From NCBI GenBank assembly GCA_040326155.1, contig JBEQLE010000001.1, positions 1-64,000 of the forward strand: a stretch of DNA of 64,000 nucleotides, written 5' to 3'. The stretch comes from Leptospirales bacterium (GTDB taxonomy: Bacteria; Spirochaetota; Leptospiria; Turneriellales; JAOUFE01). The notes beneath the pieces are model-generated. The model was not told the origin of the DNA and ran no database searches. It was given only the letters and a program-made list of their open reading frames with translations. This document shows positions 1 to 16,229 of the stretch, piece after piece (the first letter of the stretch is position 1; each line of letters opens with the position of its first letter). The position numbers and the translations under genes were made by a program.

Positions 1-420
1 AAATATTATGTCTTTAGTATATTCATTTGGTTTGCTTGTTATAGTTCTGATTTTCATAAACTCTTGGTCCGGATTCTCAGGTTTATTAAAAAATAGTAGT
101 TTGTAATCAGTATTATCAATCTTGATTATTATATCAATAATACCCTTCTTATAAATCTTCCAAAGATGGGTGGTTCTGATAATTTTTTTGTTTTTGCAAA
201 TATTTTTAATTAGCTGATTGTTCTTTTTAAATAGCCATGTTTCGCCGGACAAACATTTACTCTTATTACCTAATGTTTTTACCATTTTCTTGTAAACCCA
301 AATTTTTTCACCATTATTTGTAAGCTTGGCTTTAATACTATTTAAATTATAATCAGTTGAATTAAGGTCTGAACTATACAAGTAACATACAATTACCAGA
401 AAAACTGAAAAATACCTCAT
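1..420 (-). CDS. Hypothetical exported protein (3'-partial, runs off the window); probable cassette gene
   Basis: Hand translation gives an open frame of 140 codons from ATG at 420 (MRYFSVFLVIVCYLYSS...) with a hydrophobic N-terminus. AGGAG RBS upstream; start lies ~40 bp after the GTTATAC end of the attC-like site. Confidence 0.75.
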   Translation of the reverse strand, partial: MRYFSVFLVIVCYLYSSDLNSTDYNLNSIKAKLTNNGEKIWVYKKMVKTLGNKSKCLSGETWLFKKNNQLIKNICKNKKIIRTTHLWKIYKKGIIDIIIKIDNTDYKLLFFNKPENPDQEFMKIRTITSKPNEYTKDIIF

Positions 421-457
421 AATAATGTACTCCTAAAATTCCCTAAATCACTTCTGC

Positions 458-706
458 GTATAACAAATTTTCATCTGTTCGGGGCAGACTTCGCTGCCCC
501 CAGGTTTCGCATCTTATTGTACTTTAAAATGATATTAATATTCAAAGAGACTATAGATCAATTGTTTTTTTTGTAAATGCTCACAACCACATTTTGGGGC
601 TGCCTTCGCTTAACCGCCAGGCTCGCACAAATTATGGATATTAATTGGTGCTCGCATGGCTAACTCCGGCGGCATGAAAACGTCAGATAAAATTGAAACG
701 TTATCT
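458..706 (-). repeat. Long attC-like recombination site (~250 bp)
   Basis: Minus strand reads AGATAAC-gtttc-AATTTTATCTG...CAGATgAAAATT-t-GTTATAC, i.e. complementary arms with one unpaired base and AAC...GTT cores. It lies just after one gene's stop and just before the next gene's RBS. Internal sequence recurs at ~4632-4740 and ~8868-8958. Confidence 0.65.
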
Positions 707-737
707 TAAATGCATTTGGTTTTTCTTTTAAATCTTA

Positions 738-1652
738 TCATATAGTTTTTAATAGGTGCGACAGATGGCTGATGAAACAAGATTGAACCCCTGAACTGCG
801 AAGCTCTTTTTCTGAAGGAAAATCGAATAATGGGGTCACTCTGTTATAAGTTGCAAATATTGCTGTTCCTAGGCTTTGTGTACGAGCTCCTAATGGAGCA
901 ACTATCAGTTGATACTTCTTATTGTGATAGCAATTGTTTATTTCATTCAATATTTCGATTATATCAAATGGGTGGTATATACTGCTATAGTAAAATTCCC
1001 CTAGGCTGTTATGGCTTTCGAGATCGCCAATATTTTTTTCAAAAGCAATGGATTTCGCATTACTATTCACTCCTGGAAATGAAATTATCGGCAGTATAGT
1101 GGTACATTTAGTAATACTTTCAACTAGTGAATTCACCCTGCCCCCTTCATAACCAAGTATAACTGCGATTATCTTTTCGGATACAGAATCTAAACGGGTC
1201 GTGTACCCTGGAAAATTTGCAAAATTTTGTGCATCAAATGATAATTCATAATTATACTCATCATCTCTCTTGTACTCTAGTGGTAATGTATAACCTGCAA
1301 ATAGATAGCTGGGTTGAAATTTTGTTAATAATAACTTTATAAGAATGAATAATATTTTATGATCTATACTCGTAATATCCAACAATAAATTACAGCCTGC
1401 AATTGAATAATCATCTAGTAATTGTGGCAAGTCACGTATTACATCATCTATAATTATTTTTTCTTGGTTGTAAATAAAATAAATAATATCATCTTCAATT
1501 ATAAACTGATATTGCTTTATACTCTTATTTTCTAAAAAAGATTCGTATAAAAATCTATCTCTGTCCTCCGTAGTCCGTCCATAAATAAACGTATCAATAT
1601 TATCGTTTAAATATCCTTCGATTTTTTCAAAAGTGAAGTATGGTTTGAACAT
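738..1652 (-). CDS. Third component of putative PRTase/STAND conflict system (tandem Rossmann/CARF-like, inferred)
   Basis: 304 aa; motifs LLLDITS, YTLPLEY, ILGYEGGR, IVAPLGARTQSLG; 2-nt gap to the upstream ATPase gene; very AT-rich. Confidence 0.6.
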   Translation of the reverse strand: MFKPYFTFEKIEGYLNDNIDTFIYGRTTEDRDRFLYESFLENKSIKQYQFIIEDDIIYFIYNQEKIIIDDVIRDLPQLLDDYSIAGCNLLLDITSIDHKILFILIKLLLTKFQPSYLFAGYTLPLEYKRDDEYNYELSFDAQNFANFPGYTTRLDSVSEKIIAVILGYEGGRVNSLVESITKCTTILPIISFPGVNSNAKSIAFEKNIGDLESHNSLGEFYYSSIYHPFDIIEILNEINNCYHNKKYQLIVAPLGARTQSLGTAIFATYNRVTPLFDFPSEKELRSSGVQSCFISHLSHLLKTI

Positions 1653-1654
1653 AA

Positions 1655-3586
1655 TTAAAAATCGATTTGTGCTTGCTCTGGTAAATCATCACTAATAACT
1701 TTCAACCTTTTCAAAACACTACGTTTTACCTTGCTAGTTTCTTTGATCATTTCGGAGATCTCACCAGTATTTAAGGGAATTTTGTAACTTTTCCGATAAC
1801 TGATTTTAAAATATGGGGAGAATATATGATTTATCCGAAAATCCTCTATTTCAACTGAAGCAGAGCTCCTATCGACCTTTGTTGGAGTTTCTTGAATTAT
1901 AGCATCGTGCATTAAAGCTAGATCAATAATGTCTTCTACTTCTTTACTCTTTTCTGTTCCTCGAATCCAGAATTGACTAATATCCACATCGCTTAACGTA
2001 TTATTGGGGTTGGTTAGTACTTGGTAAAAAATATCACCCAAGTTTGTAATGAAGTTTAAAATCAATTTTCCTTTTGGATGTTTTTTGCTCAAAGCTTTGA
2101 TATTTAATCTACTAGTATCTATCGCTGCAGTATGTTGTTCATCAATCGATAGTTGCCGTGGTTTGATAAAATCAAAACCATTAGCAATCGCAATATCAAA
2201 CGCATTTTGACATAACTCTAGAAATGAACGTATAACACCATGTGATAATTGCGCATAAGTATTAAAACCATAGTATTTTTTTGTAGTTCTAAATTCCTTA
2301 CAAAGCAAAAATATAATATTCAATTTCGCTGGATTCAACCATTTATGATATCTTGTTGGCTTTTTAAAATTAGCTTTATCCCATTCAATATAAGCATCAT
2401 ATATATCGTGAACCCGCAAAGTTTTCCGGAGCAATAATGACTTGTGTAAACGTAAATTTAACAAATCGCAATTTGTTAATATTTGAATCATCTCTTTTAA
2501 ATTGTCATTTGCCCCTACCTTTTGTTCAATTAATCTGGATACTTCATCTCTCAATAAATCAAATTTTTCAACTTGTTTTTCTAATTCTGATAGTTCGTCC
2601 GAAAACCTGTATTCACCTAGATAATATTTGATATCGTAATACTTTGGTTCTAGCTTATCTCCAAAATGGTTTTCTAGTCGAACCCTAACTATATCTGCTA
2701 ATAATTGATTATAATTTCTTTCTTCCCCTTCTTTAATCTCTGGGTTATAGTAAGTATAATCATCCGGATATTCAATTTGTTCTGATTCAGCTGAGGTGGC
2801 CAAGGTCTTTTGACCTTTAGTTTTAACCGCGATGTTATATATCAAATTATATTTACTACCTTTTATCAAGGTATTAATTCGAACTTGTTGCTCAGCATTT
2901 AAAGTCTCAAATTCGTCTATTAAAACATGGAATTGCGTATTTTCAAATAACTCTATTTGACTCAGTATATCGATGAGTTTCTTCACAAGCCTACCTGGCC
3001 CATATAAAAGTAATTTTTCGATCGGGATATTATTGTTCGTAAAGAATTCAATATTATCGAGGGCATTGTCTATTTGAGCGATAAAAGCTTCTAAGTCTTG
3101 TATTGCAATCCCTTCCTTCACTTCAGTATCTGGAGGAAACAAAGGTATTGATAATATCTGAATTATTTTACTTTCATTTATCAGTGACTGAGTTCTTAAA
3201 AATTGCAAAAATAGTGCAATTTCTTTTGCTATGGATAAATTAATATATGTGTCAAATATTTTTAACCAATCCTCCTTTGTAACCCTAGCCCCAGTTAATG
3301 CCGGTATGAAAGTATGGTCTATAACATAGTAAAAACCAATAATATTCTGCTTGCTAAAATACTCTACTATAGCTCCTTGATGTTCTTGTGCAAACATTTT
3401 CATTTGGGGATACCAAGAATTACATGTAAAAAACATTGTTTTTCCTGAGCCACGACCCCCTTCATAGATTAAAGGGTGTTCTCCTAGTAGACCTTCAAAG
3501 CTTTTATTTTTGATATAATATTTCCAACTTTTCAAGCCTAACTCTTCTGTTCTAAAGGCCTTAAACGGATTAATCGGACTTGGCAT
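1655..3586 (-). CDS. ORC/CDC6-like (STAND-type) P-loop ATPase
   Basis: 643 aa; N-terminal NPF motif, Walker A GGRGSGKT, Walker B HVLIDEFE, helical C-terminal region; ATG directly abuts the upstream stop. Confidence 0.75.
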   Translation of the reverse strand: MPSPINPFKAFRTEELGLKSWKYYIKNKSFEGLLGEHPLIYEGGRGSGKTMFFTCNSWYPQMKMFAQEHQGAIVEYFSKQNIIGFYYVIDHTFIPALTGARVTKEDWLKIFDTYINLSIAKEIALFLQFLRTQSLINESKIIQILSIPLFPPDTEVKEGIAIQDLEAFIAQIDNALDNIEFFTNNNIPIEKLLLYGPGRLVKKLIDILSQIELFENTQFHVLIDEFETLNAEQQVRINTLIKGSKYNLIYNIAVKTKGQKTLATSAESEQIEYPDDYTYYNPEIKEGEERNYNQLLADIVRVRLENHFGDKLEPKYYDIKYYLGEYRFSDELSELEKQVEKFDLLRDEVSRLIEQKVGANDNLKEMIQILTNCDLLNLRLHKSLLLRKTLRVHDIYDAYIEWDKANFKKPTRYHKWLNPAKLNIIFLLCKEFRTTKKYYGFNTYAQLSHGVIRSFLELCQNAFDIAIANGFDFIKPRQLSIDEQHTAAIDTSRLNIKALSKKHPKGKLILNFITNLGDIFYQVLTNPNNTLSDVDISQFWIRGTEKSKEVEDIIDLALMHDAIIQETPTKVDRSSASVEIEDFRINHIFSPYFKISYRKSYKIPLNTGEISEMIKETSKVKRSVLKRLKVISDDLPEQAQIDF

Positions 3587-4492
3587 TTATGTGCTTCTCC
3601 TTTTCGTTAGGGTTCCATTGTTCAACTCTCTCCAGAATATAGGCAAGGTCCAATTTGGAGTAGTTTTTGCTATAAAGATCGCATATGCTAACCTACGTCT
3701 ACCTTTGATGGTAATACCACGATTCTTGCACAACTCATTCAATACTGCATATGCAGTATCCCTTTCGCTATCATTTCGCCAGTATATGGAATCCTTTGAA
3801 AACACATCAAACTCAGGGCCATAATAATCACAGTATAATACATTGATATATTCGCTAACATTATTTAATCCTTTATATATTGCTAATATGCATGCAAAGA
3901 ACATATGTTCCGGTGTTTTTAAATTCATACGAAGGGTTTCAATTTCTGGTAAATTGAGAAATCGAAGTAATTGTCCCCCAGTACCTATTGAGTCATCGAA
4001 GATTACAAAATAATCGAATTCATTCCATAGCTCATTTCCAATAATTTCATCTAAAAAGCAACATTGCGATTCATTTATAATACCATTATTCGTTAAAAGC
4101 CTCATCATCCCATTACTACTTTCATTTGGTTTATTTCGATCGAGTAAAGGAATAAAGGCAGTCTTTTTCAAAATTGTTTTGTATTTATTTTCACTATAAC
4201 TCAAAGGCTTATCAATATATTCATCAACTAGCCTGTGATTAATTTCAAATTCGATGTGCGGAATTATTTTATTGTTTAAAATTTCATGCAATGCTTTTAT
4301 TAAATGCGCTTCATTATAGTATTGAGCCCTGGATAGAATATTTAAAATATAATATTCTTCTTTTTCCGATAAATTACTACTGCTCAGCCAAGTATTCAAG
4401 CTATTCATAGAAAAAGAATCTACTTCTTTATAATCAATTAAACTTTTGATAAATTTTTTTTTCACATAAATTTGTTCGTTATAATCAAACAT
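3587..4492 (-). CDS. Phosphoribosyltransferase-like protein (PRTase-CE type)
   Basis: 301 aa; PRPP-binding loop FVIFDDSIGTGGQL and C-terminal TTPNWTLPIFW motif, recalled as typical of conflict-associated PRTases. Confidence 0.75.
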   Translation of the reverse strand: MFDYNEQIYVKKKFIKSLIDYKEVDSFSMNSLNTWLSSSNLSEKEEYYILNILSRAQYYNEAHLIKALHEILNNKIIPHIEFEINHRLVDEYIDKPLSYSENKYKTILKKTAFIPLLDRNKPNESSNGMMRLLTNNGIINESQCCFLDEIIGNELWNEFDYFVIFDDSIGTGGQLLRFLNLPEIETLRMNLKTPEHMFFACILAIYKGLNNVSEYINVLYCDYYGPEFDVFSKDSIYWRNDSERDTAYAVLNELCKNRGITIKGRRRLAYAIFIAKTTPNWTLPIFWRELNNGTLTKRRST

Positions 4493-4525
4493 AACTACTA
4501 ACTATATACTTTTCAAATGTACGTC

Positions 4526-4740
4526 GCATAACGAGAGTGTAGAATAAGTAAAATTGGATGGCTGTAATCCCTCTACGTTAGAGTACAGGGGATAAAATCA
4601 GGTCAAAATGGACTTATTCTACAGACTCAACAAATTTTAATCTGCTCACGTGCGCCTTCGCGTTTCGCATCATATTATACGTCAAAATGATATTTATATT
4701 TAAAGAGACATTCGATCAATTGTTTTTTTCGTAGATGCAT
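4526..4740 (-). repeat. Second attC-like site (truncated, interrupted by MITE)
   Basis: 4632-4740 is similar to 465-580 (aaattttaatctg...gtttcgcatc...aaagagac...gatcaattgttttttt). On the minus strand it ends in GTTATGCGACGT, ~30 bp before the PRTase start. Confidence 0.6.
4533..4628. mobile_element. 96-bp MITE
   Basis: Terminal inverted repeats GAGAGTGTAGAATAAGT / ACTTATTCTACAGACTC (15/17 match), flanked on both sides by AAC (3-bp target duplication). Absent from the homologous site at 462-465. Related ends at 6243 and 58639. Confidence 0.7.
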
Positions 4741-4744
4741 CTCC

Positions 4745-5296
4745 TCATTTTGAGGTGGCAACTTTTAACACTTGAGGAGTGAGGTGAATTTCAACATCTT
4801 TGTCGGAAATCCATACCTCTTGATCTTGAATTCGACAATCAATTTGCATATTTTTTTGCACTAGCTTTTCTAATTTTTCCTCATCTCCATCCGGTATTAA
4901 CCAAACTTCAAGATTTTTAAATCGCTCTAGCTTTGTTTGAATTGTATTCCACCAGGTTTGAGAACGACGTAAATTAAAGCAATATAAAATTACATTTCGT
5001 GCATTGCTACAAGCTTTACGAATAATTTTTTCGTCTGGCTGCCCGATCTCTATCCAAGTTTCAATGAGACCAGAACGAGATTTTTCCCAGATGGCTGGCT
5101 GGTCGGCCTCGCTTATATCTCCAGCGAAGGTAAGTGTACTACTGGCATTTAATGCAAAAGCGAGAAGTCTTATCATTAACCGTTCATCTGTTTCTGAAGG
5201 GTGTCTCGCTATTGTTATTTTATGTAACTCATAGTAATCACAATCGGTATTCGTGATTTGCAAATTAACTTTATGAATTGTTGATTTTAGGGCCAT
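4745..5296 (-). CDS. yaeQ: YaeQ family protein
   Basis: MALKSTIHK start, ARHPSETDERLMIRLLAF, WIEIGQPDEK motifs. The ORF track start (5362) is probably over-extended. Confidence 0.9.
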   Translation of the reverse strand: MALKSTIHKVNLQITNTDCDYYELHKITIARHPSETDERLMIRLLAFALNASSTLTFAGDISEADQPAIWEKSRSGLIETWIEIGQPDEKIIRKACSNARNVILYCFNLRRSQTWWNTIQTKLERFKNLEVWLIPDGDEEKLEKLVQKNMQIDCRIQDQEVWISDKDVEIHLTPQVLKVATSK

Positions 5297-5686
5297 TTTT
5301 TGATATCTAAACTTTGATCTATTGTAAATCAGACTATAAAGGAAAGGCCGTCTCGGCCACAACTTAAAAAAACGTTATATAGGTGAAACCATCGGAAGGA
5401 AAATATATCTGGCGTAAATAGAGAAGATTATATTCTTGACTTTGACGTAAAGAAAAATGCTACGGAAGATATGATCTTAACCATTGCAGAGAATTCATTA
5501 AATAACACAGGAGATTTGGAAACATGTTTGTATTAGCAAATGAAGATTATTCCATTTGAGGTGGGTAATTAGTAAGCTCACTTCATTTGACAAATTTATG
5601 GTCTCATCTTTAATTAACTCGACGAATTGTTTATTGGTAGATTTTTCTAAAATTTCATTCGTTCTTATCAGATTATGTTTCAATTT

Positions 5687-6181
5687 CTACTTCCTGAATA
5701 TTATATTTGATATCATGTGAACAGATTCTTTCATGATAATTATATCTTCTATAGATATTTTTTGAAACATTATATTATTATCTTTATTCAATTTATGAAT
5801 GCCTTGCTTCCAGATTTTAATGCCTATGGTCGTCGGCTTCAAAATAATACTTCGGTGATCATCTGGATTTAAGACGCTCTCAAGATATTTTAAAACTTTC
5901 AATTTTTTAATTATCTTTGATATATTCGATTTTTCGTACCCTAATTCTAAGACTATTTCGTTGGGTGTCATTGTTTTCTTACGGACTATTTCATTCAAAA
6001 CAATAAATTGCTGTTGATTCAAATGGTATTCACTTAATATTCGATTTCCTGCTTTCTCTAGATTTGCCCCTGTACGAAGAAGGTGCTTTAATAAATAATT
6101 TACTTCTTTACTCTTATCCAGATTGGTTTCCATAGAAACTATTCTGTACAAACTATTTTCCGTGTCAACTGTATTATCCAA
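5687..6181 (-). CDS. MarR family transcriptional regulator
   Basis: 164 aa; LNQQQFIVL...KSNISKIIKKL...DDHRS winged-helix pattern. Confidence 0.85.
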   Translation of the reverse strand: MDNTVDTENSLYRIVSMETNLDKSKEVNYLLKHLLRTGANLEKAGNRILSEYHLNQQQFIVLNEIVRKKTMTPNEIVLELGYEKSNISKIIKKLKVLKYLESVLNPDDHRSIILKPTTIGIKIWKQGIHKLNKDNNIMFQKISIEDIIIMKESVHMISNIIFRK

Positions 6182-6347
6182 ATTCCAACTCCGTTAGCAG
6201 ACTCCATATTTTAGTTGCAAACCTGGTAGATCGGAGTCTAACGAGTCTATAGAATAACTAAAGTCGGTGGCTGTATCCCTGCGATATGGGTTTATTGTGT
6301 TTACGTACCCAGAAATAAAAGTTTTATGCTATTTAAAACGAGGATTC

Positions 6348-7559
6348 ATGTCTACAAATATAATTAATTACTTAAAAAGCGCTGTTACTTTAACTACTGA
6401 TCCTGATGATATTAAGGTTAAAAAAGCATTGCTTACCTTTATTTCGATTTTATTATTTTTCGCTGGTATTAGCTGGGGTATCATGTATGTTTTGTTAGGT
6501 TTTAAAGCTACCAGTATTATCCCGTTTACCTTTTCAATTTGCCTCTTGGTTAGTTTTATTGTTTATATTGTTTTCAAAAAATATAATGTTTTTCTTTACT
6601 CACAATTATTTCTGATTTTATTACTTCCATTTTTTGTGCAATTAAATTTAGGTGGTTTTTCCAACTCTGGTTCCGTTTTTATATGGTCTATTCTGGCTCC
6701 CATCGGGGCATTTATGTTCCATAGCACCCGGTCGGCATTTACATTTTTCCTTTTTTATCTTTTACTATTAGCAATACTTTTATTCACAAATGGAAATTCC
6801 TACTATGAGGTGAATAAACTTGAAAGTTGGCATAGTTTACTTTTCTATGCAATGAACATTGGTGTATTATCTACGATTATTTTTACTGCTTTATGGCACT
6901 TTGTGAAAGCATTAAATCATGAACATGAACGTTCCGAAGCCTTATTGTTGAATATCTTACCCGCAGCTATTGCAAAAGAGTTAAAGATTGATCCTCAAAA
7001 TCATATTGCAAATGAATACCAATCCGTTACGATCCTGTTTGCCGACATTGTAGGTTTTACTGCCTTGTCCTCTAATTTAACACCTGATGAATTAGTCCAA
7101 ACATTAAACAAAGTATTTTCTATGTTTGACGAGCTGGTTCATAAACACAATCTCGAAAAAATTAAAACGATCGGTGATGCCATTATGGTTATTGGCGGTT
7201 TACCGGAACGACGAACTGATCATGCGGAGTGCATCGCCAAACTAGCCTTAGAACTACAAAGTAATATTAAAAAGATTAAAACAACTGAAGGGTTACCTAT
7301 GTCACTTAGAATCGGTATCCATTCAGGTCCTGTTGTCGCTGGTGTTATTGGTACAAAGAAATTCTCATATGACGCATGGGGTGATACTGTTAATACTGCG
7401 GCAAGAATGGAGTCAACATCAAATCCAGATACAATTCAACTGACAAAAGATACTTACATGCTTCTAAAAAACAAATTTCAATTTACAGAAAGAGGACTTA
7501 TAGATGTAAAGGGAAAAGGGAAAATCAATACATATTTCCTTAACCAGGATCAGGATTGA
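6348..7559 (+). CDS. Membrane-bound class III adenylate/guanylate cyclase
   Basis: About 6 N-terminal TM helices; catalytic motifs TILFADIVGFT, KIKTIGDA, RIGIHSGPVVAGVIG, YDAWGDTVNTAARME; AGGA RBS before ATG 6348. Confidence 0.93.
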   Translation: MSTNIINYLKSAVTLTTDPDDIKVKKALLTFISILLFFAGISWGIMYVLLGFKATSIIPFTFSICLLVSFIVYIVFKKYNVFLYSQLFLILLLPFFVQLNLGGFSNSGSVFIWSILAPIGAFMFHSTRSAFTFFLFYLLLLAILLFTNGNSYYEVNKLESWHSLLFYAMNIGVLSTIIFTALWHFVKALNHEHERSEALLLNILPAAIAKELKIDPQNHIANEYQSVTILFADIVGFTALSSNLTPDELVQTLNKVFSMFDELVHKHNLEKIKTIGDAIMVIGGLPERRTDHAECIAKLALELQSNIKKIKTTEGLPMSLRIGIHSGPVVAGVIGTKKFSYDAWGDTVNTAARMESTSNPDTIQLTKDTYMLLKNKFQFTERGLIDVKGKGKINTYFLNQDQD

Positions 7560-7630
7560 TCTTCTAACACATCAACTTCATTTAACAGACGAACTCAAAC
7601 TAGCCTCCGAATGTCAAAATTTAGCTACCA

Positions 7631-7811
7631 GGTTCTGCGTCACCCAATACAATATTGCTTTTGGCGTTGAACGATGAATCTACAGTAAACAGGCGTTATA
7701 AAAATTAGCTACCAGCTGGTAGATCGGAGTTTACCCGTTAAGCGGTTCTGCGTCACCCAATACGATATTGCTTTTGGCGTTGAGCGATAGATCTACAGTA
7801 AACAGGCGTTA
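7631..7811 (+). repeat. 68-bp direct repeat pair (7631-7698, 7744-7811) with a 14-bp palindrome between
   Basis: ggttctgcgtcacccaatac...ctacagtaaacaggcgtta occurs twice with ~4 mismatches; CTACCAGCTGGTAG at 7709-7722. Confidence 0.85.
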
Positions 7812-8401
7812 GCAAAAGTATCTACCGGAGCGCTGCACTTTATACGTACCAAATTCAGAGGCTGGGTAGGATTAGCGTTATGTGTAAACTCGAATAACAT
7901 CGCTATGTTAAGATTGATATTCTCTCCAATTGTTGTGCAATCGGCAGGTGAGCATGTAAATTTTTTTTCATTGTATATTTCATACTCCGTACCCGAAGCA
8001 AGCAAAATAAGTCTCTGAGGTTCCGATACAGAAATCTCGAAAAGCGTCGCCAAAGGCTCCAACTTTTTATCCTTTTGTTGCAGTAACGTATATCTCTCCG
8101 AACCACCATCCGTAGGTGGGTTGGTTAAAGTTTCAATCTCAATCAACAATTTGTAATTATAGCCCCATTCATAATGAAAACCATTGATATAACCGTATAC
8201 GCCATCATAGGAACCATTGGTTCGATCTTTAGTAATCATGCATAAAGAGTAGACCATACCCCGGCACTCGCCTTTTGTATGTTTTATATAAACAACTTTC
8301 TCTTCTGTTTGATTGGGAATCAAAAAACATCCGCTACTGCAAAAAATAAAAGCTGAAAAAATCACCCAAAACATATGTCTACCAAAATTCTTTTTTTCCA
8401 T
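7793..8401 (-). CDS. DUF4377-like lipoprotein
   Basis: Signal peptide with lipobox SSGC; C-x-G-M-V-x-x-x-C and INGFHYEWGYNYKL...NPPTDGGS motifs. Confidence 0.75.
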   Translation of the reverse strand: MEKKNFGRHMFWVIFSAFIFCSSGCFLIPNQTEEKVVYIKHTKGECRGMVYSLCMITKDRTNGSYDGVYGYINGFHYEWGYNYKLLIEIETLTNPPTDGGSERYTLLQQKDKKLEPLATLFEISVSEPQRLILLASGTEYEIYNEKKFTCSPADCTTIGENINLNIAMLFEFTHNANPTQPLNLVRIKCSAPVDTFANACLL

Positions 8402-8758
8402 ATGGTTATCCCTTTTTTGTATTATCGCGTTATATGATATAAAGTGTAAACACAAATTGATATTTCGGCGACTATTTACAGTAGCATTTGTTTCATTCCC
8501 TCAATCATGTATTGACTCGTTAACATGGGATGATGAATGTCAATTCTAATATTCAGCTTTGAATTTGAACGATGGTTTATGAAGTCATTTTGCAAGAATT
8601 TAAAAAAATGTGTAATAACTCCTGAGATAGACTTATCACTTTCTACAAATCTCATGAATATAGTGTCGCTACTATTCGTAATACCTAATAATTCATTTCT
8701 AGAAGTAATCAACTCTGTCGGTGGTTTCCACCTCCTCACAACCCCCCGTTTCATATAA

Positions 8759-8871
8759 AAGGGGTAGCGTGATAACGTTTTTGTTTTGCCGAAAACAAAA
8801 ACTTATGCAGCGAGGGGGAAATGTAAAATTCGGGTAGAGAATTTACTGTGTTTCCCCCACAAATTCTAAAG
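8759..8871. repeat. Intergenic REP/MITE-like element, copy 1
   Basis: aaggggtagcgt-[hairpin]-agcgaggggg...aaaattcgggta...tttccccc...ttctaaag; homologous to 17259-17378. Confidence 0.6.
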
Positions 8872-9135
8872 AGACATTCGATCAAATAATTTTTTTGTAA
8901 ATGATCAACTACATTTTGGGTTCGAATAATCCACCAGAACTCGCACCAAAATAGGTGCATATCTCCATTTTCGCCGACAAATTTATTTCCTGTGTTTGAT
9001 TATGCTTACGACACGCTTAATAAGAACGGGAGCACTGTCGACCATTATTACCGGGGACTCTTACACCCGTCGGGTGGCCTCGAAATGCCCGAGTTCGACT
9101 ACCCGCTACGTTTAACTAGTATCCGGATTCAAAAG

Positions 9136-9164
9136 CAAGGAAACCGCTTGGGGCGGTTTCCTTG
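9136..9164 (-). terminator. Rho-independent terminator of Rhs gene 1
   Basis: 12-bp stem CAAGGAAACCGC/GCGGTTTCCTTG followed by CTTTT on the minus strand, 13 bp after the stop. Confidence 0.8.
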
Positions 9165-9177
9165 AATCATACGATCT

Positions 9178-12100
9178 TTAAAATTCATGCTTGGTGCCAT
9201 ACCAGTCGTGCAAACCTTTGCGTAAGGTCTCGGTGTATGCATCGTTTAATCCGTTAATCGTACCTAGATCTACCGGGATGGCATACATCGGGGTAAACAA
9301 ATTATAGGCAAAGATCATAGCGTCCGTATAAAATGACGAGCTATTGTAATTGCCTATGAGCATTACCCCTGCAATCGATTTTTCGACTACTCCCACCATA
9401 CCGCCTCTGATTATAACGTTCCCCCCTTTACCAAACATTAAACCTTTAAACCTGGCCAAGTCCTGGCTACTTTCAGCCCATACGGCGAGATCTTCCTTGA
9501 ACCAGCTTCCCCCTATGGCCATGCCTATTCCAAAACCGATGCTGCCGCCTAAAGAGGCCCCTGCTACAGCGTCCGCTTCGGACGATCCCGATGTGCCAAA
9601 GTTTTTGCCGACTACATAACCCACAGTGGACCCGATTGCGTATCCAAACGCGCCACCCGCCGCCATACTGGCAACGTATTTGCCGACTGCCACCCAGCCG
9701 GGAGTCGCTGTTCCGCCGGAGGCCACGGTGAGAACTGCCCCTACCACAACAGCTCCGACAACGTTCACAATTTGATGGGTTTTCATCCGTTCGAGTTTTT
9801 TCTTTTGCTGCTGCTTTGAGTAGGCGCCAAACAAGACAACCATAGCCGCTCCTTCAAAGCTTTGCGATGCTATATCTTCCAAAACCGCCTGCGTTACGGA
9901 TTTAACGATTCGCGTCGTAATTTGTTCTTCGGTTAGACGTCCGTCCGAGTCTCTATATTTTACGGGGTTGCCCAATGTGTACATGTAACGGTTCATTCCT
10001 TGCGGTTGCTTAGGTGCGCCGACACTATCAGGCTGAAGAAAACGTCCGAGTTCCGGGTCGTAAAACCGGGAATCATAAAAATACAACCCAGTTTCACGCT
10101 CTTCTTCTTGCGATGTGTATTTGTATCGAAATATATCGGGGCCCCCGGAGTCAGCTCGATTGATTTCACCGTAGGGGGTGTACGTTAACTCGCTTTTTCC
10201 ATCCATTTGTCCACCTGACACGGGGTGCCCCATAGAGTTAGTGATCATCACGACACTACCTACATGGTCGGTATGATAAAAATACATTCCGGTTGTGGGC
10301 GAACCGGCATTCACGGGACCGGCTCCTGACGGTGGTCCTCCGCCGCCCGGTGGATTTCCACCATTGCCCGGATTATCAACTGACGGCGTGGAAAAGTCGA
10401 CTCCATCCGGTGTGATAAACCAGGGGGCTTTACCCTGGGGATTTTCTTTGGCAGGCCCGCACCCTGCGAGACCGAAGCTCAAGGAAAAGGCCGTTAGGTA
10501 AATGGGTACGGTTATAGCCTTAAATAAAGATATACCGCTTGTATTTCGATATTGGACTACGGAGTAAAACAATAACCCCGTTAATAGCAACAATACCAGA
10601 ATTCCGTAAAACTCCGGTCCGACCTGCCCGTCTTTTACAAAAAGAATCTTGTTGAAAAAAGACCTTGAATAATAGGCCGCTCGATTACGCCAAAAGTCTG
10701 TGCATTTAATGGCGACACCTTTGCAAAGAAAACCGCCCGACAAGGCGGCGATCATCCCAACCTGCGTGTCCGTATTATCCTGAGCAGCCAGCAGTACGGT
10801 ATCCGTTCGTGTATACTGGGCCACGATTTCATTGTGCAAGCCTATAATATACATTGTGTATGAGTGGGGGTTGCCGCCCTTTTTTTCGACTTCGTAAAGG
10901 TTGTCCATGCTATAGACTGTGGTATTGGTCTTTGCCCGGTATATCTTTATCCTGGTTCCTCTATAATCATAAGAATAGTTAATGTTATCTCCGCCGGCCG
11001 TTAATATTGCACTCACCCGTCCGTACCCGTCATAGGTAATGGCGTCCCCGTTCCGGTCTGTCATTTTACCGCTTCCGTCATACGCATAGGTTTTTGTCCC
11101 GAACACCGAACTTTGCGCCTTGGTTACCCCATGTACGTGCAGCGGGTTGTTATACGATAATGTGATATCCCCTTTGGTCGTCATGTTCCCGTTTTCGGAA
11201 TATGCATAGGTACGCGTACCATAATTTCCGCTCGCATTCGTCAATCGATCCAAGTCGTCGTATACAAAAGATTGCGTCCTTGCCGGGTTAATCACGTCTT
11301 CGATATCCGTTATATTCCCATGTGCATTATAAATGTAATTCCGGTTATGTTCAACCGTTCCATCCGCTAAGACGGTTTGCATGGCTTCGGGTCTTTTGGT
11401 AACCGGATCATAAGTGATTTCCGTTTTTACTCCGTTCCCTGTTGTCCGGAATACTTTATATGATCCGTCTTGCTCCATTGTGTAATCGACCACGGTATGA
11501 CCCGTACTCGAACCGTCGGCAGTGTCCATGGTAAGCGCGGATATGCCGCCCCCGTCGGAGTATTGGTAATACACCTTCGCCCCGTCGGGATACGTGATGG
11601 CTTGCAACCTGTTCAACACATCGTACTCGCGATTAAAGATCAAAGTTATATCGTCGGTTTGCCGGGTTGTGGAAATATTGTTTCCCCGAATATCGTAATC
11701 GAAGGAAGTCGTTCCCGACCCGTCGGTAACGCTAGACACCCTCCCTTTTTGAAAAGGGGTGACGTCATAGGTATACGTTACCGATGGCTCTCCGGGAGCG
11801 CTGAGAGTTTTAGTACGATTCAAATCGTCGTAGGTATAATACACGGAACGGTTGGCGCCATCCGTTTGTTGAATCATTCTACCCACGATATCATAGACAG
11901 AGGTTACTCGACCGCCGTTTTTATCTTTTATACTAATCCGGTTGCCTTTTAAGTCGTAAGTAAATGTTGTCACATCTGACGCCGGATCGGTGATTTTCAC
12001 AACCCGCCCGGCGCTATCGTATTGCATTCTCATTATGCCGGATTGGACTTTACGATAATACGGTAATCCTCTTGCGTCATTTTTTACAATTTCACTATTC

Positions 12101-15100
12101 AATAGCGTACCGTCTTTTGCCTTCGTAATCCCTGTGCTATCAAATACACTATATGTATAGGAGTTCGTAGATTCATCGGGGTTTATTATTTTAGTCAATA
12201 TCCCGTCGGGATGACCGTATTCGTAAGATGAATAAATCGGGTCGTGCAGACCGTCCAAATAGGGATCCGTTTTTGAAATCAACCTGTTGCGTTCATCGTA
12301 TTCAAATATTTCCGTAAGGATATTTCCGCCGAACGCTTTTGATTCTTTACGAACACCTCGACCCAGAGAGTCCGTATATTCCCGAACCCAGAAATCGTCA
12401 GCATTCTCATCATCGCGCAGAATTGTCTCGGTATATTCCAGCCCGGGGTCACCCGTGTTATGATAAACAAATTGCCTGGTCCACTGGGTTTCGCCGGGGG
12501 AGATAATTTCTTTCAGGCGTCCGTACTCGTCGTAGTTTTTGGCCTCGATGCCTCCGTTCGGATACTCCGATGTCAAAACAACGCCGAAGTTATAGTCGTG
12601 AGTTTTTTTGGTTATAAACCCAAGCGGATTTGTTGTCTGTTCAATAAAAATACCGGCATAGGTGTCATACGTAAATGTCGTTTGGCGACCGAGCGGATCT
12701 TCAACAAGCGTAACGTTTCCATATGTATCATATTCCAGAAAATAGCTTTTTGCCCAGTTTCCGGAACCGGTATAATCGTGCAATTCGCTCAGTTGATCAT
12801 TGGAATAAAAGTATTTTTTATGTTCCAAAATGGCACCGTTACTTTTTTTAACACTTGCTTCTAATCGCGAAAGAATCCAGGATGTTTCGTTTGTATAATA
12901 TGATCTCGAGAAAACCTGACTAAATGTATTATTTAGACTGGTGTTAGACTCGATGATATTGTTATAGCGGTCGTATACAGGAGAATTATTAATCGTTTTA
13001 ATTTTCACCCCTGCCTGGTATACTTCATTTGTACTTTTTTTAGGTCTTACGATCAGCATACCGAAATGGCTGTTTAATTTTTCATAATTAATGACACTCC
13101 GATTTTGCAGAACACTACCATCATACCCGTAACTCGCATACACCAACCCTGCATAATCCCATGAATCTTGAATATATTTATCCAAGAGGTATTGGCCGGT
13201 ATTATTATTTAAACTCTTGATGTAGGAAAAACCGAGCGCTGTTCTGCGATAACGAGAGTCGCCTAAAAAGACCTTACTTTCTCCGTAAGAATAAGTAAAC
13301 GAACGCGTTATATTCGCCCCGTAATCCGTGGTTATATTGGTCACCACATGATCCGGAAAAATGTTGGGTTTGAGCGGTTGCGTCGTCGTTAACGGTAAAT
13401 TTACAATCCCACCGATATGCATGGGTATGTCATATCGTACATTTGTACTTCTACCTTTGCTGTCGGAAATTTCGGTAAGTATATCGTTTGGCCCCGTAAC
13501 GGGGGTTAAATATAAATGTAACCTACCGTTTGTCGAATGGGAGGTATTATTTTGTCGACGAAAGGTGGCAAAGCCTTCATTCGTATTATAAAATATCTGT
13601 TCTTTTCCGGAAGAAATTCCGATAAAGTCGGCTCGCCCATCTGAGTTGTAATCGGCTAACGAATGAAATCCCTGCGAAGCAAAATCATAATCTCCGCCAG
13701 GATTAAAATAAACCGACTCATTAAGAGTGCGGGAATAAGAAATATAAGTTTTTCCATTATAGAATCGAACAAAATCAGCCCGGCCATCGCCATCCACATC
13801 GGCAAAGCTTTTTGAATTTCTCCAGTTACCATAGGCTTCATTGGTAACGCGCTGCATATCGTCGTTGTCTGAAGTCGTCGGTGAAGCTTCCGTAATATTA
13901 ATCCGAATCCCGTACGTTTTATATTCATCTCCCTCTGAGTCATATAAATTAACTGTTAAATTGGGAGTTTCAAAAATGATCGTATCCTTATTGCCATCGC
14001 CGTTAAGGTCGACGGAACTATTTCCCGATTCGCTGACAGAAAAAGACGACGCATAAGCACCGGTTGCGGAGTTGTACAGTTGAATGTTCAGGGAGTCCCC
14101 CGCAAACGTGACACGGTCATCAAAACCATCGCGGTCGACATCATGCAATGAAAAGTTCGCCGACGATGTACCTCCCATCCCCTCGGTGGTTAAGTGAGTA
14201 AAATTTACCGGCCGCGTAATTTTAGTAGAAAATTCATTTCCATCAAACAAGTGGATGATTAATTCGGCACCGTTAAAGACTATAAAATCCAAATAACCGT
14301 CGCCGTTAACGTCATTTAAAAATCGGTTTCCATCTGTTCCTATCGTAACATCCGAAGTGGTGTTTTTAAGAACCGTAAAATTATAAGAGTTTATAAAACT
14401 CACGAGAATTTTAGACCCGCTGATGCGTACAAAATCAGCCACACCATCTTTATCCATATCTATAAAATTTTGATATGAGTCCCCTAAATCATTTATGTTT
14501 ATCGTCCTGGCGGAACTAAACGTGGAACCGTACGAAGTGTATACTTTGACAATATCCCCCGGATTGAATTCGATATAGTCGGCTCTTCCATCACCGGTTA
14601 TATCTGCGGCAAAATTTTTAATGATCTTTTCACTTGCTTTAGGAAGATTGATACTCATACCGGTCATCGTGACAACGTTTAACGGATTTGCTGAGTTAGA
14701 GCTTGCATAAGCGACTTTTAAATCTCTGCCATTTTCTTCTAATATTAATAAATCCATTCGCATATCCCCGTTAAAATCAGCGGGAATCATATAGGAATTT
14801 TCCGTCATATTTATTGTTTGCGTTCCGGTAATTGTGGGCTTAATTCCACGGTCATTGACATAGTTTACCGACAGTTTATTGTTATTTTGGATCCCGGTAA
14901 TGCGAACAAAGTCGGGCTTCGTATCTCCGTCTACATCCATAAAATAGGTTTTAGAACCCTCCACACCGTCAAGACAGGGTTTGGTATACATCCCAACAAA
15001 ATACGCGCACATTTCATACACATGTGGGCCGAAAGTCGCTACGCAAGGGGCGTAAGCTGAGCATAGACAGGAAATTCTGCCCCAATGGCATGGAGTTTGG

Positions 15101-16068
15101 TCGGCCAACGGGTAATGGTAGTTTAAATTGTTAAAGACCCCCGAATTAAAATCCGAGACGCGGGTTATGGGATGGTCCGAATAATTTAAAACCAAGGGAT
15201 CGTAATTATCTCTTTCTATTTTCACCAGGCGGCTGCGATTTGTAAAACCGGTTTGCTCGTAGACAAAAGTATATTGTTCGACATCCGTTCCGTTTACGGC
15301 TACGGAGATTTGATGTAACCTCTTTGTATATCCTTTGGTATTCGCCGAAGCAAAACCCGGGGTGGTATCGCCTCTGGATTCATATGTGAAAGTGATTACC
15401 ACTTTCCCCCCGTTATAAGAAATACTAGCCGGATATAAGACACCGTCGATTTGTGATTGGCTGGTATAGGTGATATCGTAGCCGTTGTTGTTTAAATCTC
15501 TTACGGAACTTAGACCCCAGGCATTTGTATAGGCTGCGTGAGTCCCGTTCCCCGCAACCTTGGAATTAACGGATGTGCCGAATTTATATTTTATGCCGGA
15601 TCTCATATGGGCATTCCAGGAGACCGGTCCGAAGGTCGATGGTTGCACGGGTTCAAAACGTATAAAAGATTCCCTTTCCGAATGATAATAATTTCCGAAG
15701 GAGCCGGATATTTTTCTCATTCTTCCGGCCAGTGAACTTGTGTAATCATCTCTCCAATTATAATGTACACCGAGTTGTTCATTGCGGGAAATAAAATGTA
15801 TTCCCCGCAAGCTCCAGCCTACCCCTGCGATTCCGTTTTTACCACCGGAGTTATAGGTTAAGGATAATTCAGGGAGTAGATCTTTTGTTGCGGGCGGTAT
15901 GCGTATTGGCAAAGAAGTAACGGCTTTCCCGTTTGCATTAATTGTTACCGCCGGCAGGCCTTGCGGAATTGTCGCATTCACCGGGAAACCTTGCAATTGT
16001 AAGAGAGCTGTGAGCAACATAAAAACTTTTATAAAATACTTGCCGTAACGTTTCGTTTTTTTAGACAT
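9178..16068 (-). CDS. Giant SpvB/FG-GAP/YD-repeat Rhs protein (TcB-TcC-like fusion)
   Basis: Signal peptide; SpvB-like N-terminus (PELSLTYNSGGKNGIAGVGWSL); FG-GAP repeats (DVDGD/DFNGD/DVNGDG); YD repeats; core YFYHTDHVGS...YDSRFYDPELGRFLQPD...NPVKYRDSDG. AGGAG RBS before ATG 16068. Confidence 0.92.
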   Translation of the reverse strand: MSKKTKRYGKYFIKVFMLLTALLQLQGFPVNATIPQGLPAVTINANGKAVTSLPIRIPPATKDLLPELSLTYNSGGKNGIAGVGWSLRGIHFISRNEQLGVHYNWRDDYTSSLAGRMRKISGSFGNYYHSERESFIRFEPVQPSTFGPVSWNAHMRSGIKYKFGTSVNSKVAGNGTHAAYTNAWGLSSVRDLNNNGYDITYTSQSQIDGVLYPASISYNGGKVVITFTYESRGDTTPGFASANTKGYTKRLHQISVAVNGTDVEQYTFVYEQTGFTNRSRLVKIERDNYDPLVLNYSDHPITRVSDFNSGVFNNLNYHYPLADQTPCHWGRISCLCSAYAPCVATFGPHVYEMCAYFVGMYTKPCLDGVEGSKTYFMDVDGDTKPDFVRITGIQNNNKLSVNYVNDRGIKPTITGTQTINMTENSYMIPADFNGDMRMDLLILEENGRDLKVAYASSNSANPLNVVTMTGMSINLPKASEKIIKNFAADITGDGRADYIEFNPGDIVKVYTSYGSTFSSARTININDLGDSYQNFIDMDKDGVADFVRISGSKILVSFINSYNFTVLKNTTSDVTIGTDGNRFLNDVNGDGYLDFIVFNGAELIIHLFDGNEFSTKITRPVNFTHLTTEGMGGTSSANFSLHDVDRDGFDDRVTFAGDSLNIQLYNSATGAYASSFSVSESGNSSVDLNGDGNKDTIIFETPNLTVNLYDSEGDEYKTYGIRINITEASPTTSDNDDMQRVTNEAYGNWRNSKSFADVDGDGRADFVRFYNGKTYISYSRTLNESVYFNPGGDYDFASQGFHSLADYNSDGRADFIGISSGKEQIFYNTNEGFATFRRQNNTSHSTNGRLHLYLTPVTGPNDILTEISDSKGRSTNVRYDIPMHIGGIVNLPLTTTQPLKPNIFPDHVVTNITTDYGANITRSFTYSYGESKVFLGDSRYRRTALGFSYIKSLNNNTGQYLLDKYIQDSWDYAGLVYASYGYDGSVLQNRSVINYEKLNSHFGMLIVRPKKSTNEVYQAGVKIKTINNSPVYDRYNNIIESNTSLNNTFSQVFSRSYYTNETSWILSRLEASVKKSNGAILEHKKYFYSNDQLSELHDYTGSGNWAKSYFLEYDTYGNVTLVEDPLGRQTTFTYDTYAGIFIEQTTNPLGFITKKTHDYNFGVVLTSEYPNGGIEAKNYDEYGRLKEIISPGETQWTRQFVYHNTGDPGLEYTETILRDDENADDFWVREYTDSLGRGVRKESKAFGGNILTEIFEYDERNRLISKTDPYLDGLHDPIYSSYEYGHPDGILTKIINPDESTNSYTYSVFDSTGITKAKDGTLLNSEIVKNDARGLPYYRKVQSGIMRMQYDSAGRVVKITDPASDVTTFTYDLKGNRISIKDKNGGRVTSVYDIVGRMIQQTDGANRSVYYTYDDLNRTKTLSAPGEPSVTYTYDVTPFQKGRVSSVTDGSGTTSFDYDIRGNNISTTRQTDDITLIFNREYDVLNRLQAITYPDGAKVYYQYSDGGGISALTMDTADGSSTGHTVVDYTMEQDGSYKVFRTTGNGVKTEITYDPVTKRPEAMQTVLADGTVEHNRNYIYNAHGNITDIEDVINPARTQSFVYDDLDRLTNASGNYGTRTYAYSENGNMTTKGDITLSYNNPLHVHGVTKAQSSVFGTKTYAYDGSGKMTDRNGDAITYDGYGRVSAILTAGGDNINYSYDYRGTRIKIYRAKTNTTVYSMDNLYEVEKKGGNPHSYTMYIIGLHNEIVAQYTRTDTVLLAAQDNTDTQVGMIAALSGGFLCKGVAIKCTDFWRNRAAYYSRSFFNKILFVKDGQVGPEFYGILVLLLLTGLLFYSVVQYRNTSGISLFKAITVPIYLTAFSLSFGLAGCGPAKENPQGKAPWFITPDGVDFSTPSVDNPGNGGNPPGGGGPPSGAGPVNAGSPTTGMYFYHTDHVGSVVMITNSMGHPVSGGQMDGKSELTYTPYGEINRADSGGPDIFRYKYTSQEEERETGLYFYDSRFYDPELGRFLQPDSVGAPKQPQGMNRYMYTLGNPVKYRDSDGRLTEEQITTRIVKSVTQAVLEDIASQSFEGAAMVVLFGAYSKQQQKKKLERMKTHQIVNVVGAVVVGAVLTVASGGTATPGWVAVGKYVASMAAGGAFGYAIGSTVGYVVGKNFGTSGSSEADAVAGASLGGSIGFGIGMAIGGSWFKEDLAVWAESSQDLARFKGLMFGKGGNVIIRGGMVGVVEKSIAGVMLIGNYNSSSFYTDAMIFAYNLFTPMYAIPVDLGTINGLNDAYTETLRKGLHDWYGTKHEF

Positions 16069-16229
16069 TTGAATTCTCCTTTTTCCACACAACAAAAATT
16101 GTTTGTCGTCAAATTCAGCATTTAAATCCACGCTGAAACCGAACCGGGATTTATTAAACCATTTATATAACAAAAAGGGAACCAAGTCAATGGGATGTTT
16201 ATCCTATTGGCTCCATCTGGGTACACGCC

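Follow-up and report, generated by a model that had tools for sequence, protein, structure and literature searches.

The described system closest to the locus analyzed here is a catalogued four-gene cassette that comprises a DNA methylase, a PF24390 protein, a PF24389 protein, and a CARF6 protein, as on plasmid pKPHS2. In a window of 64,000 nucleotides from Leptospirales bacterium (assembly GCA_040326155.1, contig JBEQLE010000001.1, positions 1 to 64,000 of the forward strand; "the window" is this whole stretch), a trio of genes encodes a PRTase-CE phosphoribosyltransferase (PRTase)-like protein (g1), an ORC/Cdc6-like AAA+ ATPase (g2), and a predicted tandem-CARF protein (g3), and it shares the families, the order, and the tight spacing of that cassette. 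The trio differs in having no adjacent methylase, in lying between attC-type sites, and in an ATPase with ~25% identity to the plasmid ATPase. It is probably an intact, methylase-less copy of a widespread conflict cassette, most likely directed against phages or plasmids, in which an ATPase-CARF sensor would control a PRTase toxin and which would have entered an integron-type array as one cassette.

Retron partners act as toxic effectors. The PRTase effectors of type III-A retrons have a PRTase-CE domain homologous to that of g1 (E 2e-19), and PRTase-CE families are given as type III-A retron partners in a table of PMC13712802. The trio differs from these retrons in having neither a reverse transcriptase nor a gene for multicopy single-stranded DNA (msDNA), its partners being an AAA+ ATPase and a CARF protein. 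BrxC of the bacteriophage exclusion (BREX) systems, an ORC/Cdc6-clade ATPase according to PMC12839542, resembles g2 in having an AAA+ domain followed by a winged helix (Z 8.8 to the g2 model), and BREX shares with the trio a methylase link at the family level. In contrast to BREX, g2 is about half the size of BrxC, its partners are a CARF protein and a PRTase, and PglZ, BrxA, BrxB, and BrxL are missing. The tandem Rossmann-like CARF fold predicted for g3 is that of the CARF and SAVED sensors of type III CRISPR and of the cyclic oligonucleotide-based antiphage system CBASS (Can1, Can2, Csm6, Cam1, Cap4, and Cap5), in comparison to which g3 has no fused effector domain and no linked cyclase, Cas10, or CD-NTase gene.

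The flanks of the trio are closest to integron cassettes with phage defence (BRiCs) and to integrase-less attC clusters, for which the term CALIN is in use. Shared features are ends of the RYYYAAC and GTTRRRY types, co-oriented arrays, the upstream-core hallmark described below, and defence or toxin-antitoxin cargo. The differences are that no integrase was found, that the sites are long for the usual size range of attC, that the cargo consists of three genes in 4.07 kb, and that the borders of the trio itself do not show the hallmark. According to 10.1101/2024.07.02.601719, phage defence is among the functions that integron cassettes can encode, and PMC12614218 describes such cassettes as well.

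The families of the trio are catalogued (PF24390, PF24389, and PADLOC CARF6), but the trio is unnamed in the libraries searched. No named defence system in PADLOC-DB 2.0 fits, since the matches of g1 are confined to PRTase models of retrons and those of g3 to CARF6 models, and NCBIfam holds no name for g1, g2, or g3. The literature search, which covered the CARF classification literature only partly, found no paper describing the trio and no experimental study; the original prediction, an earlier reading of the same DNA, likewise knew of no experimental characterization.

Gene products and family of the trio

The trio with its domain identities is a real feature. All three genes are co-oriented in the calls of open reading frames (ORFs), with gaps of 0 nt between g1 and g2 and 2 nt between g2 and g3, and their base composition is foreign. 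The trio has a guanine-plus-cytosine (GC) content of 31.7%, compared to 39.6% for the genome, and none of the 1887 4-kb windows across the whole assembly was as low. It lies within an 8.9-kb low-GC contig end that consists of three repeat-delimited units according to the GC profile and nhmmer. The three frames are intact, and alignments to relatives showed that every family-invariant residue is retained. A promoter and terminator scan stayed at chance level, with 22 promoter sites against 26.1 expected. Three AT-rich genes with just these gaps had been described in the original prediction; its motifs DDSIGTG, GxRGSGKT/IDEFE, and LDITS/APLG are present in the translations of g1, g2, and g3, respectively, and its three domain assignments were upheld by Pfam, PADLOC models, and structure matches.

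The g1 protein matched Pfam PF24390 (PRTase-CE) with E 7.8e-29 and 101.7 bits (cut-off 27), residues 34-292 covering profile positions 3-245 of 253. The motif FDDSIGTGGQ of its phosphoribosyl pyrophosphate (PRPP) loop contains the acidic pair D166 and D167, both invariant across 52 PRTase sequences, and a g1 profile of 52 relatives matched uracil PRTases weakly, at the PRPP loop (E 0.004). The effector role suggested for the PRTase derives from the match of g1 to the PADLOC PRTase_III-A models, which describe the type III-A retron effectors.

The g2 protein matched PF24389 (ORC-CDC6-like) over the full profile (positions 1-571 of 571, g2 residues 6-605 of 643) with E 4.6e-87 and 293.5 bits (cut-off 27). 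It has a Walker A motif GGRGSGKT at residues 43-50 and a Walker B motif LIDEFE at 222-227, within which G43, G46, G48, K49, T50, D224, and E227 are invariant over 44 ATPase sequences. The AlphaFold2 (AF2) model, with a predicted local distance difference test (pLDDT) score of 89.6, combines an AAA+ ATPase fold with a winged helix at the C-terminus. In VIA-align, the archaeal ATPase PAB2304 scored highest (Z 12.1, 316 aligned, root mean square deviation [rmsd] 4.8, residues 6-595), followed by Orc1/Cdc6 2qby_B (Z 11.3, 256 aligned, rmsd 4.3) and the archaeal ATPase SSO1545 (Z 11.0), with MuB, TnsC, MalT, Avs3, and BrxC lower at Z 8.8-10.9. The original prediction had spoken of a STAND ATPase; the ATPase was confirmed, and the STAND label proved loose, as Orc1/Cdc6 and archaeal AAA+ winged-helix proteins score above STAND proteins. 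The structure matches made no nuclease or other output domain visible in the model, the g2 sequence gave nothing meaningful against solved structures (best E 0.93), and none of the PADLOC models matched g2. The C-terminal tail of g2 (...EQAQIDF) is disordered in the model. The pattern Q..[LIMVF].?[FLWY] occurs in the last 14 residues of 28 of the 44 family tails, compared to 62 of 2200 internal control windows, and we take the g2 tail to be a likeness of the beta-clamp-binding motif QL[SD]LF.

No Pfam match was obtained for g3, which carries the motifs LLLDITS and VAPLGART and was matched by nine PADLOC CARF6 models (best E 2.9e-28); its CARF family comprises 390 cluster representatives at E <=0.001. 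The AF2 model (pLDDT 95.0) has two Rossmann-like halves. Residues ~158-285 aligned with more than 10 CARF proteins (Csm6, Cam1, Can2, Card1, and others) at Z 8-11.5, the top scores being those of Csm6 (Z 11.5), Cam1 (Z 10.7), and Can2 (Z 10.6). The tandem-CARF nuclease Can1 aligned with residues 18-280 (Z 10.5, 208 aligned), and the SAVED domains of Cap4 and Cap5 scored Z 7.5-8.4 with ~190 aligned. On this modelled fold, g3 is a tandem, SAVED-like CARF protein, a point that the original prediction had missed. The g3 sequence gave nothing meaningful against solved structures (best E 0.082). KaiC took the top Foldseek rank for the g3 model and was discounted at a template modeling (TM) score of ~0.2, against a probability of 0.99-1.00 for Cam1.

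A complex of g2 and g3 was predicted with an ipSAE of 0.71 (runs 0.71, 0.71, and 0.73), compared to 0.00 for the best control. Among 157 solved complexes, 116 attained the 0.71 mark, whereas only 2 of 215 mismatched pairs did so. At least 84% of the contacts were common to the runs, with a partner pLDDT of at least 79. The predicted interface joins g2 residues 86-101 and 176-186 to g3 residues 69-76 and 143-156. The model confidence supports binding between the ATPase and the CARF protein, without amounting to proof.

With a single g2 protein as the query no related locus was found, and an alignment query was needed. The loci analyzed number 80, namely, 79 from a one-genome-per-species scan with the ATPase alignment and one from the related genome G009, with genes assigned by jackhmmer; they were picked by likeness to g2, so all counts describe this ATPase subfamily only. 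The 79 scan loci span Bacillota, Bacteroidota, Pseudomonadota, Planctomycetota, Chloroflexota, Campylobacterota, and one archaeon. The ATPase was found in all 80 loci. In 78 of them the PRTase gene is its immediate upstream neighbour on the same strand, and in 74 the CARF gene is its immediate downstream neighbour, likewise on the same strand. All three genes were present in 72, most of the incomplete loci being cut by contig ends, which bore out the co-occurring unit put forward in the original prediction. Family neighbours elsewhere included AbiEii, a putative AbiC, Schlafen/AlbA_2, HsdR, a FokI-like endonuclease, ArdC, integrases, and transposases, and Pfam scans of the family neighbourhoods showed no conserved signal maker, cyclase or other, beside the trio. 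Genes of nucleotide metabolism, for a dUTPase, a TSCPD-domain protein, and thymidylate synthase, lie directly upstream of the PRTase at L072, L076, and L099.

Among 61 related genomes compared, PF24389 scored above the cut-off in two, this genome and G009, a patchy and non-core distribution that answers the question of core-genome origin raised in the original prediction. The G009 trio has the same order, keeps the tight spacing, and has 28-39% identity to the trio of the window. It sits in a defence-island-like stretch (L042, G009:C26, 383-13127) with the gene order SAM methyltransferase, HNH_4 protein, trio, DUF4007, 1178-aa protein, PAPS-reductase-like protein, and cysteine desulfurase; the set from DUF4007 to cysteine desulfurase resembles a DNA phosphorothioation system.

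The ATPase was found by tblastn on 155 plasmid records, mostly of Klebsiella (142 at >=80% coverage, 136 typed conjugative), and is rare in phage records (2 records). On pKPHS2 of Klebsiella pneumoniae, the order is methylase, PRTase, ATPase, and CARF protein (KPHS_p200550 to p200520), where the annotation gives a "DNA methylase family protein" and then three hypothetical proteins, of which the first and third were recognized by hhalign as the PRTase (E 1.8e-48) and the CARF protein (E 1.2e-36). A stretch of just over 1 kb, containing three small genes, separates this cassette from repA.

The link of the family to a DNA methylase was missed by the original prediction. Downstream of the CARF gene, 46 of 68 direct neighbours were methyltransferases, 42 with N6_Mtase or Eco57I models and 4 with generic models only. 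Upstream of the PRTase, DNA methylases made up 16 of the 64 direct neighbours tested, and 15 of those loci were without a downstream methylase; the Pfam test took in 64 of 66 upstream neighbours, leaving out that of L042 (HNH_4, scanned separately) and the 1619-aa ORF of L074. An adjacent DNA methylase thus accompanies ~61 of the 72 complete trios. None was found by Pfam and NCBIfam beside the trio of the window, whose neighbours are the yaeQ gene and a 140-aa open-ended ORF, and no adjacent DNA methylase was found with the G009 copy either. A tblastn search with 13 cassette methylases gave weak matches only in this genome (best E 3e-8, 25% identity). At L064, L097, and L102, a protein of 570-577 aa follows the CARF gene in the place of the methylase, and its N-terminus matches the start of the ORC-CDC6-like profile.

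Repeats flanking the trio

The flanks of the trio are supported as attC-type sites by a repeat family, of which nhmmer found 54 matches in this genome and of which the elements flanking the trio are ~135-240 nt. The consensus in gene sense is 5'-TTCGCATAAC GTTTC AATTTTATCTGACG ... variable ... CAGATCAAAATTT GTTATGCGAA-3', in which the arms pair and the ends resemble RYYYAAC and GTTRRRY. The 62 elements recovered in complete form range from 47 to 297 nt, with main size classes near 175 and 240 nt. They are imperfect palindromes with conserved arms, and one arm pair covaries, being A-T in 43 of them, G-C in 13, G.T in 2, and unpaired in 4. At <=3 mismatches, this genome has 26 occurrences of the arm at 680-702 (reversed control, 0), and the arm is absent from 33 other genomes of the order. 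Pattern scans of the arms beat shuffled controls; local alignment of the left arms with their own downstream sequence was no better than that of shuffled arms, and Rfam gave 0 matches for window positions 1-9300 at E up to 1.

In a metagenome scan, 52 contigs of related organisms bore the repeat, and most of them share little non-repeat DNA with this genome. On all eight multi-copy metagenome contigs, the copies are co-oriented and 1-3.6 kb apart; the three copies in the window are all on one strand (nhmmer), and contigs C106 and C104 of this genome are exceptions. The ORFs between the repeats on the metagenome contigs encode HigB, HicB, PIN, RES-Xre, Fic, a C5 methylase with a PstI-type endonuclease, KAP NTPases, AAA_21 with RloB, TIR with HD, HNH, and reverse transcriptases. 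Judged by these domain matches, the inter-repeat content is rich in toxin-antitoxin, restriction-modification, and defence-type domains. Two RVT_1 reverse transcriptases stand beside attC-type sites (L135, 405-1700, and L138, 273-1646; 431 and 457 aa) and may be retron or defence-type enzymes; we assume that they could also be group II introns of the attC-inserting kind.

A hallmark of integron-type recombination was found in the repeat family. With strict detection, 5 of 10 consecutive pairs had an inverse core that agreed with the core of the upstream element at >=7 of the 8 variable positions (background 1.25%), and none of 60 elements matched its own core at this level. With relaxed detection, 9 of 36 pairs matched (background 0.25%), two of them in this genome; the relaxed 3'-arm pattern, with 875 matches, is too loose and yields many spurious "upstream" pairs that lower the hallmark counts. 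An inverse core complementary to the previous core and not to its own points to recombination of circular cassettes at G|TT, unlike a transposon target duplication.

Downstream of g3, site no. 1 has the inverse core AGATAAC (696->690) and the core GTTATAC (464->458), with paired arms AATTTTATCTG and CAGATGAAAATT; its minimum-energy fold as single-stranded DNA of the minus strand pairs the two ends, with a z-score of only -1.1. AGATAAC lies 41 nt after the g3 stop, and the GTTATGC of site no. 2 lies 33 nt before the g1 start. The inverse-core side of site no. 2 either has been lost or is covered by the terminal part of yaeQ. From core to core, a putative cassette of 4068 nt is delimited, with the trio as its sole cargo. 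The borders 458 and 4532 and the cores GTTATGC and AGATAAC of the original prediction were confirmed, the borders being the outer bases of two GTTRRRY-like cores. Its integron-like cassette is supported in part: the flanks are of attC type by arms, ends, and the hallmark in the repeat family, but movement of the trio as one cassette is not supported by its own borders, where the hallmark is at background, and no integron integrase was found.

Inserted exactly at the GTT crossover point of site no. 2, and missed by the original prediction, is a hairpin element of ~96 nt whose terminal inverted repeats are 17 nt long (GAGTCTGTAGAATAAGT ... ACTTATTCTACA.ACTC). Five full and two partial copies exist in this genome, all starting directly after ...TGTT of an attC-type site; the other full copies are on contigs C58, C81, C21, and C114, and the partial ones on C159 and C91. 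The element could be an attC-targeting miniature inverted-repeat transposable element (MITE) or a mini-cassette with no ORF.

The best candidate for an integron integrase is a 352-aa tyrosine recombinase encoded on contig C12 (8247-9305), for which "XerA / integron integrase" is the top NCBIfam model, with 206 bits against a cut-off of 220. The protein scores below both the XerA/IntI and the integron-integrase cut-offs and has no segment for integron-integrase profile positions ~185-253. The last 69 nt of C12 (contig end, 9561), upstream of the recombinase gene, recur near the start of contig C1 and contain two direct repeats GACAATTAGAA and a GTTAT.

Proposed mechanism and rival explanations

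In the proposed mechanism, the ATPase and the tandem-CARF protein would form a sensor or switch complex on DNA. The ATPase offers for this a predicted winged helix and a tail resembling a sliding-clamp-binding peptide, and the CARF pocket would bind a nucleotide ligand. Upon a trigger, the complex would release the PRTase, which would damage the nucleotide or PRPP pool, and the infected cell would stop growing. The predicted g2-g3 binding, the clamp-like tails, and the absence of a conserved signal maker favour this model of an ATPase-CARF switch and a PRTase toxin. The 4068-nt unit would belong to an array built by integron-type G|TT recombination, into which the trio would have come as one cassette, and the array would now be in a CALIN-like state with no detectable integron integrase.

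Several results weigh against this reading. The integron integrase model TIGR02249 did not reach its cut-off in this genome (best 102.7 bits, cut-off 265; assembly 94.7% complete), where its matches skip profile positions ~186-236. No integron integrase was found in 34 genomes of the order, and no tyrosine recombinase on the 52 metagenome contigs by one phmmer query of limited reach. Of the 171 contigs, 50 carry the repeat, some of them large contigs with copies in their interior, and this scatter is not the picture expected of one sedentary integron; gene orientation is mixed within the arrays. At the trio itself, agreement between the inverse core (GTTATCTTAAA) and the upstream core (GTTATGCGACG) does not exceed background, with 3 of 8 variable positions, or 1 of 8 when the inserted element is read in place of the core. 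Besides being truncated, the upstream site is broken up by the 96-nt insertion, and the fold energy of the site as single-stranded DNA (455-707) is no better than that of shuffles (z -1.1 and -0.6). The methylase that is usual in the family is absent here, and methylation cannot as such be the basis of self/non-self discrimination in this copy.

A part of these results would fit flanks that are ordinary dispersed intergenic repeats (MITE, ERIC, or REP-like) bracketing a horizontally acquired island, with the trio never having been an integron cassette, an explanation we regard as rather unlikely. Arm matches on so many contigs, often interior to large ones, are what dispersed repeats would give, and the failure to find an integrase in the genome, the genomes of the order, or the metagenome contigs, the terminal arms that form MITE-like inverted repeats, the fold z-scores that are not significant, and the lack of the cassette hallmark at the borders of the trio agree with it. 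A MITE, however, gives a direct target duplication round one copy, whereas here the variable bases on the left side of a copy were the reverse complement of the right-hand bases of its predecessor, 1-3.6 kb off (5 of 10 pairs with strict and 9 of 36 with relaxed detection). The great range of lengths combined with conserved ends, the co-orientation on every multi-copy metagenome contig, and the variation of inter-copy content among relatives also speak for cassettes. For the mechanism, the main rival has a small but appreciable chance: the PRTase would be no toxin and would make a nucleotide-like signal from PRPP for the tandem-CARF protein, with the ATPase on DNA or a host factor as the output. 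A CARF sensor needs a ligand, yet neither the trio nor the family neighbourhood holds a cyclase or other signal maker; classical PRTases synthesise nucleotides, the acidic pair of the PRPP loop is invariant, and nucleotide synthesis is proposed for the PRTases of Ter systems in PMC5512222. The resemblance of g1 to the type III-A retron effectors and the lack of a nuclease or other output domain in the ATPase model count against a signal-making PRTase and leave the toxin as the favoured role.

The methylase-less copy could also be a remnant that is no longer active, or could serve mobile elements as a selfish module for addiction or exclusion instead of providing host immunity, readings to which we assign little probability. 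The methylase is missing both here and in G009 in spite of its adjacency in most family members, the family is common on conjugative plasmids and lies near repA on pKPHS2, and the promoter scan was at chance; on the other side stand the three intact frames with all their family-invariant residues. Two methylase-less copies as distant as 28-39% identity both keep the tight spacing, which argues for selection on the trio alone. Beyond the probable conflict cassette, a bolder version is a long shot: the lineage would run an integron-like system with unusually long attC sites and no canonical integrase, perhaps served by the C12 recombinase as a non-canonical XerA/IntI-like enzyme, that stockpiles multi-gene immune modules, and the trio would be a self-sufficient, methylation-independent abortive-infection machine in which a clamp-docked ATPase watches replicating foreign DNA and the CARF protein senses a nucleotide that the PRTase either makes or destroys.

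New in this locus are the methylase-less three-gene unit of 4.07 kb as the sole cargo between attC-type sites, the array particular to this lineage, whose sites are long and for which no integrase was seen, and, as testable leads, the predicted ATPase-CARF interface and the clamp-like tail, which point to concrete mutants. The trio cassette is spread over many phyla and more than 100 Klebsiella conjugative plasmids, with its genes, apart from the methylase, annotated as hypothetical on pKPHS2; a methylase-less copy delimited by recombination sites reduces the cassette to a clonable minimum of three genes in ~4 kb. Judged by its flanks, the trio would belong to a defence-rich cassette array in a host outside the usual range of integrons, which bears on the reach of integron-type immunity "biobanks" and on whether multi-gene systems can travel as single cassettes. 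The trio as sole cargo suggests that multi-gene defence systems can be stockpiled in this form.

Other features of the window

The coordinates of the trio, its flanking elements, and the neighbouring features are collected in Table 1. The repeat-delimited unit that adjoins the trio carries five genes, namely, YaeQ (PF07152), a MarR-like regulator, a membrane protein, a 220-aa protein, and a 92-aa ORF. The membrane protein is encoded on the opposite strand and has a C-terminus like that of class III nucleotide cyclases; the position of a cyclase-like gene beside a CARF system may be coincidence, as no cyclase is conserved beside the trio elsewhere.

Table 1. Features of the window at and near the trio (positions are those of the window)
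Feature	Position	Strand	Size or basis
g1, PRTase-CE phosphoribosyltransferase-like effector (putative)	3587..4492	minus	301 aa
g2, ORC/Cdc6-like AAA+ ATPase	1655..3586	minus	643 aa
g3, stand-alone tandem-CARF (SAVED-like) protein (predicted)	738..1652	minus	304 aa
Putative cassette, upstream core TT to downstream core G	464..4531	minus	4068 nt; inferred from core positions
attC-type site no. 1, downstream of g3	458..696	minus	239 nt; arm matches
Core GTTATGC of attC no. 2, upstream border of the trio unit	4526..4532	minus	read from sequence
96-nt hairpin element with terminal inverted repeats	4533..4628		inverted repeat; GTT on both sides
attC-type site no. 2, body (3' half of repeat)	4629..4754	minus	nhmmer E 4.3e-32, alignment
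Partial third repeat copy	8865..8920	minus	nhmmer E 2.5e-07; border of low-GC segment and ~41% GC sequence
Adjoining repeat-delimited unit	4745..8754		five genes
Direct repeat, first copy	7631..7713		83 nt
Direct repeat, second copy	7744..7826		83 nt
ORF past the partial third repeat	9178..16185	minus	2335 aa

Between the cyclase-like gene and the end of the 220-aa ORF lie the two direct repeats, which are 90% identical and 113 nt apart from start to start. The large ORF follows directly past the partial third repeat.

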